Shown here piece after piece: positions 1 to 1,919 of a DNA stretch of 26,010 nt; within the stretch, counting starts at the first letter, position 1, and each line of letters starts with the position of its first letter. This stretch comes from Candidatus Micrarchaeales archaeon (GTDB taxonomy: Archaea; Micrarchaeota; Micrarchaeia; Anstonellales; J096). The translations under genes and the position numbers were made by a program. The DNA is taken from assembly GCA_039793475.1 (NCBI GenBank), contig JBAMLP010000040.1, forward strand, positions 1 to 26,010, written 5' to 3'. Under the pieces are notes generated by a model, which had not been told where the DNA came from, ran no database searches, and was given only the letters and a program-made list of their open reading frames with translations.

Positions 1-62
1 CGTCTTATAAATACCTTCTACGACCTCCCCTGGGTTTCGAAATTAAGCTCCCCCTAGTCGTA

Positions 63-311
63 TGCGGTTGCCGGGATTTTCAAGCCAAAACCTCCTAAGA
101 CAAACCGCGGAGGGGAAGACAAACCTCATAGGGGGCTCCGCCCCCTCGCGGTTTTTCCTTGATTTCCCCTTCACCCCCAAACCAAAACCACCTAATAACA
201 TAGGGGGGTTGGAGCTAGGGGGAGATGAGAACTACTTCAAGCTCCCCCTGGCTTATTGAACCCGGGCCGCTGGCTTGGGAAGCCAGAATCATACCACTAG
301 ACCACAACCGC
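63..311 (-). tRNA. tRNA-Gly (anticodon CCC), intron-containing; exon 1 = 311..255, exon 2 = 76..63
   Basis: Minus strand reads GCGGTTG-TG-GTCTAGTGGTATGAT-T-CTGGC-TT CCC AA-GCCAG-CGGC-CCGGG-TTCAAT (311..255) and resumes T-CCCGG-CAACCGC-A (76..63). Joined, the exons give a 71-nt cloverleaf: 7-bp acceptor stem, 5-bp anticodon stem (CCC at 279..277), 4-nt variable loop, T-loop TTCAATT. CCA is not encoded. Confidence 0.95.
77..254 (-). other. 178-nt archaeal tRNA intron at non-canonical position 59/60
   Basis: Strict hBHBh' motif. Central helix TTCA (260..257) pairs with TGAA (82..79). 3-nt bulges AT|A and AA|T. Intron helix AGCCA/TGGCT; exon helix is the T-stem CCGGG/CCCGG. Confidence 0.9.
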
Positions 312-332
312 GCTATTACTTAAAATATAGAA

Positions 333-1259
333 TTAAATTTTAAATGTTTGCGGATTCCTTTCCTTCTCGAGCACGCCTATTAATGCTTGAGGTGGGATGA
401 TGCCCTGTTCTGTTATATATGCGTTTATGTATTTCGCCGCAGTAACATCGAATGCAGGGTTTCTTATCTTCAAATTTTTCATTTTTACTTTCCACACTTC
501 AGCAGGGTCTCTTTCTTCTATATGCTCCCTCACTCCATACTGGGTCAATGGGTCGTATTTCAGCGTTTCTGTAGCTGAAAAAAAGCTCTTGTCATGAAAG
601 CGCATGATGTGCGCTAGTGTTGATGTTCCGATTTTGTTCACCAAATCCCCGGTGGCGGTTATTGCATCAGCACCGACGAGCGCAAAATCAGTTTTTTTTG
701 CAAAAAAATTCATCGCGCCATCAACGATGAAAGTAACCTCTATCCCTGCCTTTGCCAGTTCCTCAGCAGTAATCCTTCCCTGATATCTGGGCCTGGTTTC
801 GCACGCAATCACATCTACCTCCTTTCCCATCTTCACCGCTTTTTTTATTATTCCGGTTACGGTCGAGGAGTGGCAGTGCACCATAATCGTTGCTTTGTCC
901 GGGATGTATTTTGCTCCATAATCCTTCAACTTCTCAACATTTTTGTCAATCTCATCCAGCGTTCTTTTACAGTATACAAGCATGCCGCTTTTCAGAAGCT
1001 TCGCATCCTTCCTCCTATTCTCCACAGCATACTTCTGCATTGCCATCATAACATTCCGCAGCATGGGCTCCGTAGGCCTTGCTTTGCTCAGAACTTCTAT
1101 CGTTTTTGAAATTTCTCTCACAAATTCATTCGAACTTCTCTCTTTTGAGTTTTTAATCTCGTATATAACAGAATTAAGCGCTGCTTTTGCAATATTCCTC
1201 GCGCCCTGCACCTTAAGCGCCTTTATATCCGCAATAACCTTTTTTGTTTTCGCCTGCAT
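333..1259 (-). CDS. Ribose-1,5-bisphosphate isomerase (eIF-2B alpha/beta/delta family)
   Basis: Motifs VQGARNIA, ARPTEPMLRN, HCHSSTV (catalytic Cys), ETRPRYQGRITA, GADAI (catalytic Asp), NKIGT and NPAFDVT match archaeal R15P isomerase of the AMP/nucleoside salvage pathway. Confidence 0.88.
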   Translation of the reverse strand: MQAKTKKVIADIKALKVQGARNIAKAALNSVIYEIKNSKERSSNEFVREISKTIEVLSKARPTEPMLRNVMMAMQKYAVENRRKDAKLLKSGMLVYCKRTLDEIDKNVEKLKDYGAKYIPDKATIMVHCHSSTVTGIIKKAVKMGKEVDVIACETRPRYQGRITAEELAKAGIEVTFIVDGAMNFFAKKTDFALVGADAITATGDLVNKIGTSTLAHIMRFHDKSFFSATETLKYDPLTQYGVREHIEERDPAEVWKVKMKNLKIRNPAFDVTAAKYINAYITEQGIIPPQALIGVLEKERNPQTFKI

Positions 1260-1289: not shown

Positions 1290-1919
1290 TTATTCTTCTC
1301 CTACTTCGGCTATGACTGCCCCCAGCAAAAGCAATCTCATGTTTTTGTCCCATCCATCGTATTCTGATGCTTCTTTATAAAGCTGGTAGGCTGTTTTCAG
1401 CAGATCCGGATCCTTTGTAATTATGGCCCTTTCGTACAAATAATCAAGTAAAGGAGTTTCATCATCAGCCGCAACTTTTTTGTAATACTCATCAATCGCT
1501 TCTTTAAAGCACCCGCCGTCCCTATAAATGCTTTGCAGCATTTCTATTTTTTCAGCATCATTTGCAATAATATAACTCTCCAAAAATTCGCAAAACATAT
1601 CACAATCCAGACCCCTATCAGGGCGTTTTACGCCCATTTCCACTGCAATAGATAAATATTCTCCGAACTCTTTAAACAGTCTTGCTTTTGGTATGTTGCC
1701 TGCTTTTTCATAGGCGTCCGCGAGGGCATTGATTCCTTCGCTGTCGAGTTTTTTACAATTGAATCTCATTCTATTTAGATCAAGCTTTTTTTCAAGAGCC
1801 ACGAAAAGTTCGTATCCCTGCTTTTTCCTCATCAAGTTTCGTATCATCACACCACTACGATGTTTAGCTATGTTCATCCCCGCATTTTTATTAGTAGAAA
1901 TGTTTAAATATGTTTTCAC
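1290..1919 (-). CDS. Hypothetical protein, probably alpha-helical (209 aa)
   Basis: Long ORF filling the gap between the isomerase and the ligase. One weak TPR-like segment (INALADAYEKAGNIPKA); no recognised family. Confidence 0.6.
   Translation of the reverse strand: MKTYLNISTNKNAGMNIAKHRSGVMIRNLMRKKQGYELFVALEKKLDLNRMRFNCKKLDSEGINALADAYEKAGNIPKARLFKEFGEYLSIAVEMGVKRPDRGLDCDMFCEFLESYIIANDAEKIEMLQSIYRDGGCFKEAIDEYYKKVAADDETPLLDYLYERAIITKDPDLLKTAYQLYKEASEYDGWDKNMRLLLLGAVIAEVGEE

Follow-up and report, generated by a model that had tools for sequence, protein, structure and literature searches.

A T-loop intron made up of dispersed palindromic repeat modules in a micrarchaeal tRNA-Gly(CCC) gene

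What occupies a long, GC-rich, multi-hairpin intron in an archaeal tRNA gene: an RNA kept for its own sake, as a preliminary description of the locus had suggested, or DNA of another kind? The window that we analysed is a stretch of 26,010 nucleotides from a contig of a Candidatus Micrarchaeales archaeon, whose genome (G000) amounts to 0.67 Mb, is 82% complete and has a G+C content of 43%. Positions 63-311 of the window, on the minus strand, hold a tRNA-Gly(CCC) gene that is split in the T-loop, at 59/60, by an intron of 178 nt. The reading that we hold to be reasonably probable is that of a functional, spliceable tRNA gene whose T-loop intron has been filled by a mobile palindromic mosaic repeat with no dedicated RNA function. 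The gene and its surroundings consist of the following features.

333..344, minus strand: TATA-like AT-rich box, a putative promoter read from the sequence, about 27 nt upstream of tRNA position 1
255..311, minus strand: 5' exon of tRNA-Gly(CCC), positions 1-59, with the T-loop end TTCAAT, read from the sequence
279-277, minus strand: anticodon CCC of tRNA-Gly, read from the sequence
250..265, minus strand: 5' side of the hBHBh' motif, from sequence inspection and a script scan
77..254, minus strand: BHB intron of 178 nt at T-loop 59/60, from sequence reading, a script scan and the exon join
71..86, minus strand: 3' side of the hBHBh' motif, from sequence inspection and a script scan
63..76, minus strand: 3' exon, TCCCGG CAACCGC A (T-stem 3' strand, acceptor 3' strand and discriminator)
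1..62, minus strand: 3' trailer, beginning with an M1-like repeat (TACGACTAGGGGGAGCTT) and running on to the contig end

The acceptor stem of the gene has 7 bp (GCGGTTG/CAACCGC) and pairs perfectly. On its 5' side, the splice motif comprises the T-stem strand CCGGG (265-261), the H strand TTCA (260-257), the bulge ATA (256-254), and the h' strand AGCC (253-250), and on its 3' side the h' strand GGCT (86-83), the H strand TGAA (82-79), the bulge AAT (78-76), and the T-stem strand CCCGG (75-71). By a script scan for strict 59/60 motifs, these junctions form a strict 3-4-3 hBHBh', with two 3-nt bulges, a 4-bp H helix, and an h' helix that pairs at all four positions. The standard BHB rule has the cut fall after the second bulge nucleotide, so the 5' cut is placed between 255 and 254, in ATA, and the 3' cut between 77 and 76, in AAT. 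The intron accordingly spans 254-77, 178 nt at 59/60, and these borders, derived here from the BHB motif, are the ones that the preliminary description had proposed. When the exons are joined, they reproduce base for base the intron-less tRNA-Gly(CCC) at the syntenic site of the congeneric genome G002, and the 5' exon (255..311) is 100% identical to this orthologue. BLAST of the precursor against its own genome finds no second copy of either exon in G000, and no duplicated 3' tRNA fragment is found at the tRNA-Gly locus or in G002. The 60 nt that form the trailer are also present downstream of tRNA-Leu on contig C41. As expected for a gene with a T-loop intron, the tRNA escapes ARAGORN, which calls none in the window, and the Rfam tRNA model matches the 5' part alone (247-304, 23 bits). 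Judged by its motif, the exon join and the encoded endonuclease, the intron is of the BHB type, and its removal from the RNA is predicted.

The position of the intron finds many parallels in the same genome. In G000, 12 tRNA genes are found by ARAGORN and about 20 by Rfam, and at least 16 further tRNA genes are split by strict 59/60 T-loop introns, 29-97 nt long, that fall into a few sequence families; the tRNA-Gly intron, at 178 nt, is the longest strict 59/60 intron of G000. A three-unit EndA of 375 aa, encoded on C42, aligns end to end with the epsilon2 EndA of ARMAN-2 (4FZ2, E 3e-84), an enzyme that cuts a 59/60 intron in vitro (PMC3239211). Given these 16 or more other cases and the epsilon2-type endonuclease, a T-loop intron is normal architecture in this lineage, and what is unusual about the tRNA-Gly intron is its length and content, not its T-loop position. 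As a practical point, most tRNA genes of G000 are missed by standard tRNA finders because most carry T-loop 59/60 introns. Other observations concern the same repertoire: in tRNA genes on C26, C36, and C37 a single short intron family apparently accounts for two or three introns, a second EndA-like ORF of 153 aa lies at C41:13786-14034, and tRNA-Cys(GCA), at C43:19143-19629 on the minus strand, is interrupted in its anticodon loop by an intron of 414 nt or more, composed of tandem units of about 100 nt, with a scaffold gap of N inside and an M2-like module at its end.

The content of the intron proves to be repetitive. About 88% of its length is a chain of GC-rich palindromic modules, M1-M2-M3-M4 followed by a partial M4, which are arranged as follows.

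211..254, minus strand: M1, starting with AAGCCAGGGGGAGC, with an 8-bp hairpin around a 15-nt loop, and ending with CTAGCTCC
174..210, minus strand: M2, with the hairpin AACCCCCC..TATGTTATTAGG..GGTTTGGGGG
116..173, minus strand: M3-M4, with an A-rich tract and a 7-bp G5/C5 hairpin, ending with GAGGTTTGTCTT
173-151, minus strand: M3, the A-rich tract
150-116, minus strand: M4, the G5/C5 hairpin, ending with GGTTTGTCTT
97..115, minus strand: partial second M4, the 3' half of a variant, CCCCTCCGCGGTTTGTCTT; source of the doubled GGTTTGTCTT and of a 13-bp pairing
77..96, minus strand: intron tail, an M2-like AGGAGGTTTTGG and then the BHB-closing GGCT-TGAA-AA

Compared with its own genome by BLAST, the tRNA-Gly precursor gives 33 matches; other loci of G000 match positions 1-157 of the 178 in the intron, and the modules recur at more than 20 loci of the 0.67-Mb genome in varying order and number. 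Copies of M1 are found on C17, C20, C11, C22, C38, C39, C41, and C44, copies of M2 on C7, C17, C18, C20, C22, C38, C39, C43, C44, and C45, and the variant M4 is present in full form on C22. An intergenic array on C45 is 98% identical to the intron over 123 nt, including the junction of M4 with the partial M4, and a match directly downstream of tRNA-Val (C17) reaches 90% over 142 nt. The T-loop intron of tRNA-Thr(CGT) on C20 has M1-M2 in common with that of tRNA-Gly (≈88-90% over ≈70 nt) and a comparable tail, and the exons of the two genes are unrelated. Modules lie directly 3' of tRNA-Val (C17), tRNA-Leu (C41), and another tRNA (C44), directly 5' of tRNA-Thr(GGT) (C18), in reverse orientation where the anticodon-loop intron of tRNA-Ser begins (C33), and in intergenic arrays, often at contig ends (C11, C22, C38, C39, C45, and C48). 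Homologues of the intron, which the preliminary description had proposed to seek, therefore exist, but they are repeat copies and not orthologous introns. As multi-copy, dispersed palindromic units with a conserved hairpin, the modules have the hallmarks of REP/BIME/REPIN-like repeats, and the similar intron in different isoacceptors of one genome (Gly-CCC and Thr-CGT) is what defines a transposed intron. G000 contains two more repeat families that are unrelated to the M modules and often at contig ends: one of about 95 nt, often just upstream of ORFs, and one of about 85 nt that contains a perfect short hairpin, ACCTATAAGTAGGT. The two are placed on C8, C23, C26, C29, C44, and C48 and on C19, C25, C37, C45, and C48, and they may be the ends of an insertion element.

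These modules account for the folded appearance that first drew attention to the intron. Every hairpin, alternative pairing and internal repeat that had been listed for 77-254 is there in the sequence: the AGGGGGAG/CTCCCCCT hairpin on the minus strand, ACCCCC/GGGGGT enclosing CCTA/TAGG, the pairing of AAACCGCGAGGGG with CCCCTC(C)GCGGTTT in competition with AGGGGGC-GGA-GCCCCCT, and, near the 3' end of the intron, two copies of GGTTTGTCTT followed by GGTTTTGGCTT. The competing pairings arise because G5/C5 cores are common to the modules and because M4 is followed by a partial tandem copy of itself; this copy is also why GGTTTGTCTT is doubled, and the 13-bp competing pairing joins the 5' flank of M4 to the 3' half of its variant. 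The intron has a minimum free energy of -75.3 kcal/mol, compared with -64.1 +/- 4.7 for 200 dinucleotide shuffles (z = -2.41), and 6 of the 200 shuffles are as stable as the intron, so that its stability is better than its composition predicts, by a modest rather than a dramatic excess. An Rfam scan at E values up to 10 over positions 1-700 matches no family to the intron body and returns only the partial tRNA hit and chance matches.

Two kinds of long intron can be ruled out at this locus. A C/D-box guide intron is excluded because C (RUGAUGA) and D (CUGA) boxes are absent on both strands, as had been stated for RTGATGA and CTGA, and no Rfam snoRNA match is found. A coding intron, for a homing endonuclease or a peptide, is excluded because the 178 nt hold no frame with a start codon, again in agreement with the earlier reading. 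On the plus strand, one frame of 77-254 is open through all 59 codons without a start codon; this open antisense frame is probably a composition effect of the G/C runs. The suggestion that selection acts on the intron RNA itself finds no support, because the hairpins belong to the repeat modules wherever these are located, module copies occur in both orientations relative to transcription, the competing pairings come from the common cores and the partial copy of M4, and no Rfam family matches. The intron does have the structure described, but this structure comes with the repeat family and is no sign of selection on the intron RNA. Where the preliminary description had left the choice between a functional ncRNA and a mobile intron, the dispersed modules bear out the second in substance, and the first remains unsupported.

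Orthologous loci show how readily the content of this site changes. The flanking upstream gene and the tRNA-Gly gene are syntenic in G001 and G002, with gene identities of 76% and 73%. In G002, the intron of tRNA-Gly(CCC) is absent and M1-M2 modules lie directly 3' of the tRNA; in G001, an intron of about 135 nt occupies the same position, with a short M1-like start and a different remainder. An unrelated intron of about 170 nt is found in tRNA-Gly(CCC) of G040, from another family, and most other relatives have the gene without an intron. Because the orthologues are either empty or differently filled, the presence and content of the intron turn over quickly while its position is fixed. Module arrays differ between near-identical strains as well, and a metagenome contig of G002 type has a downstream array that differs from that of G002, with a palindromic module of about 105 nt nested in one unit. 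At L232:10730-10900 and at L050, in two different families, a palindromic module of about 105 nt lies exactly within the A5/T5 tract of M3-M4 and constitutes a nested insertion within the repeat family.

M1-M2 are confined to the genus. The 62-nt M3-M4 unit occurs in 14 of the 176 genomes of the order, in four families and at 84-100% identity, and the six remaining genera of the family to which the window belongs yielded no match to it. In a scan of 185,579 prokaryotic species genomes, one for each species, all complete M3-M4 units fall in Micrarchaeota records; a 19-nt core pattern gives 117 genome hits, most of them chance hits in bacteria. The eight matches to this core in IMG/VR are all chance, and the full unit is in none of them, so viral carriage was rejected. 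Such a spread, patchy and near-identical, is that of a horizontally moving element and not that of an RNA gene conserved by vertical descent. Among 24 distinct copies that were aligned (A1), four pairs and 12 cells of the inner hairpin are changed on both sides, changes in arm length from G5/C5 to G6/C6 are matched, and 92% of the cells are paired, against 35-65% with the partner slid. The hairpin itself is thus maintained by compensatory changes, and the A5/T5 tract and the hairpin are nearly invariant across copies. The high conservation of M3-M4 across families could reflect function.

The placement of M3-M4 is far from even. We took a census of 52 non-redundant 3' ends of the unit, with the adjoining tRNAs confirmed by Rfam at 15 loci. 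Thirteen of these ends lie 0-2 nt (one at 5 nt) from a tRNA 3' end, on the opposite strand, and five abut a tRNA 5' end on the same strand; seven close T-loop introns, all co-oriented with the tRNA, and two, which are orthologous, lie against the 5' splice site of tRNA-Ser. A further 4-5 end exactly at an ATG, about 10 run into other modules, and about 10 are located elsewhere. About half of the M3-M4 copies therefore lie in or against tRNA genes, which make up well under 1% of the genomes, and the GTCT end faces the tRNA in all cases. At least four different tRNAs of G002 have one M-bearing T-loop intron of about 190 nt in common. The strand of M3-M4 that lies 3' of tRNAs combines a GC hairpin with TTTTT and is terminator-like (plus strand, 130-146, in a terminator scan), and the opposite strand has GAGG 7 nt before the ATG. 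Exact abutment to tRNA ends and ATGs (0-2 nt) goes beyond random insertion with tolerance and hints at a targeting mechanism or a function.

One pair of genomes offers a filled and an empty site. Relative to the empty site in G159, of the same genus, G026 has a clean 63-nt unit against position +1 of tRNA-Leu, with no target duplication. A candidate duplication of 12 nt was rejected, since what had seemed its upstream copy is part of a conserved tRNA-like leader, found at the empty site of G159 as well. This leader, of about 95 nt and located upstream of tRNA-Leu(TAA) (L023, ~1565-1660 minus strand, in G026; L221 in G159), starts with the first 12 nt of the tRNA, ends with the acceptor complement, and forms two hairpins with compensatory changes between the two genomes. 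The tRNA-Leu(TAA) with M3-M4 at its 5' end (L023, G026) has no anticodon-loop intron, which is present at the unit-free L221 (G159). At L056 (G047:C4, ~532.2 kb) and L236, M3-M4 lies between imperfect 37-bp copies of the 3' end of a TyrRS-like gene, which was named by eye from its C-terminal translation alone. The unit at L056 lies 1.6 kb from a 390-aa tyrosine-integrase ORF, a single case from which no general integrase origin follows.

Known agents of DNA movement were considered in turn. An RNA-mediated route, by template switching of a reverse transcriptase or by tRNA-primed cDNA, came into question because unit ends coincide with RNA ends, and was rejected: RVT_1 is found in 0 of the 14 element genomes and in 42 of the 162 others. 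Mobilisation by a RAYT or IS200 transposase was set aside, as the Y1 transposase PF01797 is absent from G000 (82% complete), and so was an integrase or casposon origin, tyrosine recombinases being absent from G000, G001, G002, and G026 and Cas1 present in G001 only. The modules do not classify as MITEs either: terminal inverted repeats are not clear, the 63-nt insertion is clean and without duplication, and the flanking duplications elsewhere are 15-37 nt long. Archaeal integrating elements leave attL/attR duplications of tRNA 3' halves (in the model of Sugahara et al. 2012, PMC3293823). In likeness to these, a few related loci have the unit bracketed by 15-17-nt repeats of the tRNA that run from T-loop 58-60 to the 3' end and so begin at the boundary of the intron position; the bracketed DNA, however, is only about 110 nt long. 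An att scar at tRNA-Gly was rejected, with no second copy of the 3' exon at the locus or in G002 and no PF00589 in the 82%-complete G000. Because transposase, integrase, and reverse transcriptase were not found in this genome at that completeness, it is by distribution alone that we call the modules mobile. Recombination anchored on the conserved T-arm is a possible route of movement.

Taken together, the proposed account runs as follows. Excision would fall to the three-unit epsilon2 endonuclease, and the rejoining of the exons to an RNA ligase. The body of the intron would consist of four to five modules strung together, all from a mosaic repeat family that is GC-rich, palindromic and lineage-specific, behaves like REP/BIME or MITE elements, and would spread at the DNA level by an enzyme or by recombination. 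Selfish or neutral in effect, such repeats would persist where they are harmless, above all in tRNA introns, 5' leaders, and 3' trailers that are removed by RNA processing. The modules and their juxtaposition would then explain the many hairpins, the competing pairings, and the repeats inside the intron.

Several other explanations bear on the same observations. If the modules were functional cis-elements, acting as terminators or 3'-end stabilisers or else as an RBS, the intron copy would be a by-product, and the terminator-like plus strand at 130-146, the 13 copies that put the T5 strand 0-2 nt (one 5 nt) past a tRNA 3' end, the 4-5 copies that end exactly at an ATG with GAGG upstream, and the near invariance of the A5/T5 tract and hairpin would all be expected. 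We nevertheless regard this as unlikely: between tandem genes the T5 strand meets no incoming transcript, neither role applies inside introns, variant M4 forms lack GAGG, and the patchy occurrence in 14 of 176 genomes implies that the order does not need the unit. We give somewhat less credence still to the view, improbable to us, that the intron or the M1-M4 unit is a functional small RNA freed by EndA, RNase P, and RNase Z, possibly persisting as a stable circular intron. The module ends do coincide with processing sites, M1 starting at tRNA 3' ends and M4 ending at tRNA 5' ends, covariation accompanies the conservation of the hairpin, the fold is somewhat more stable than that of shuffles, and in all seven T-loop introns examined the copy runs in the same direction as the tRNA; yet an antisense orientation is found in 13 trailer copies and in the tRNA-Ser intron copy, orthologous tRNAs are intron-less or have other content, module order and number vary freely, no conserved promoter stands upstream of free-standing copies, and Rfam matches, C/D boxes, and H/ACA boxes are all absent.

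It is very improbable that the gene is dead, broken by the repeat insertion and left unspliced with GGG read by tRNA-Gly(UCC). A tRNA-Gly(CCC) is dispensable in principle, and the insert is a repeat and the longest strict 59/60 intron of G000, but chance is unlikely to produce a perfect 4-bp H, two 3-nt bulges, and a 4-bp h' in exact register, the exons show 100% identity to an orthologue that is intact, against only 73% for the flanking gene, and the upstream TATA-like box has been kept. The least credible reading in our view is an assembly artefact, in which a chimeric repeat join would have brought together exons that are not linked by the 178-nt sequence. The locus does lie within repeats in the last 311 nt of the contig, and the intron interior, 145-226, is covered by short, high-depth, multi-copy repeat contigs only, so that the exact module count rests on the MAG assembly. 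Against this, two independent hot-spring metagenome runs, of 2017 and 2024, both yielded contigs that cover each exon-intron junction. In addition, the acceptor strand of the 3' exon complements that of the 5' exon exactly, and neither exon has another copy in the genome; the presence of the intron is secure. Read depth over the modules is 5-10x that of the flanking gene in two metagenomes. Among the metagenome contigs compared, none has the exon-exon joint of an intron-less allele in the population, and the sole contig that matches the exon pattern is the intron-less gene of G002 type.

The preferred reading, a spliceable tRNA-Gly(CCC) with a repeat-filled intron, can be set against several known systems. 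Bacterial REP/BIME/REPIN sequences are palindromic mosaic repeats mobilised by RAYT Y1 transposases. The M modules resemble them as short GC-rich palindromes in variable mosaics, mostly extragenic, with hairpins that are maintained, arrays that differ between strains, and one terminator-like strand; they differ in their archaeal host, in that a Y1 transposase is not found in G000, and in their strong tie to tRNA borders and introns. The relation to REP/BIME/REPIN is one of analogy only. The tRNA-Trp introns of Euryarchaeota carry a C/D-box sRNA, and the tRNA-Gly intron is likewise a long archaeal tRNA intron with a possible RNA product after excision, but C, D, C', and D' boxes are missing from it, and Rfam gives no snoRNA match.

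Within the phylum, ARMAN-2 (Candidatus Micrarchaeum acidiphilum) has non-canonical BHB tRNA introns and an epsilon2 endonuclease (Fujishima et al. 2011, PMC3239211; 4FZ2), and it shares with G000 the T-loop 59/60 position, the three-unit type of endonuclease, and many disrupted tRNA genes. The 59/60 intron tested in ARMAN-2, however, has 13 nt and a relaxed motif, whereas that of tRNA-Gly has 178 nt, a strict hBHBh', and dispersed repeat modules. In Thermoproteales, families of ‘transposed’ tRNA introns have been described (Fujishima et al. 2010, via PMC4090602; re-measured in bioRxiv 10.64898/2026.10.13.758758), and their transposition was inferred without a mechanism (PMC4090602). As in that group, near-same introns occur here in different isoacceptors of one genome (Gly-CCC and Thr-CGT; at least four tRNAs in G002). 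Unlike those introns, the M sequences are also found outside introns, in leaders, trailers, and intergenic arrays and before ORFs, and they cross family borders in near-identical form, which leaves a non-intron donor pool visible. A 2026 census of Asgard archaea reports no donor sequences and no link to mobile elements for tRNA introns (bioRxiv 10.64898/2026.10.13.758758), and in the literature that we searched, no description was found of tRNA introns built from dispersed repeats in Micrarchaeota.

The tRNA-Gly intron is a visible example of repeat DNA within a tRNA intron, not a purpose-built RNA. The route by which archaeal tRNA genes come by new introns is an open question, and at the tRNA-Gly(CCC) locus a donor pool is visible in the 98% identical non-intron copy, the intron-less orthologue, and the units that are nearly identical across four families. 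Intron gain thereby becomes testable in a defined system, that of hot-spring Micrarchaeota with an epsilon2 endonuclease. It is a tentative and rather doubtful proposal that the M elements are previously undescribed archaeal mobile DNA that targets tRNA borders (the mature 5' end, the mature 3' end, T-loop 59/60, and the anticodon-loop splice site) and creates or refills 59/60 introns. If it were true, the M elements would supply a concrete donor and a mechanism for the gain of archaeal tRNA introns, and possibly for their loss as well, through replacement by processed copies.
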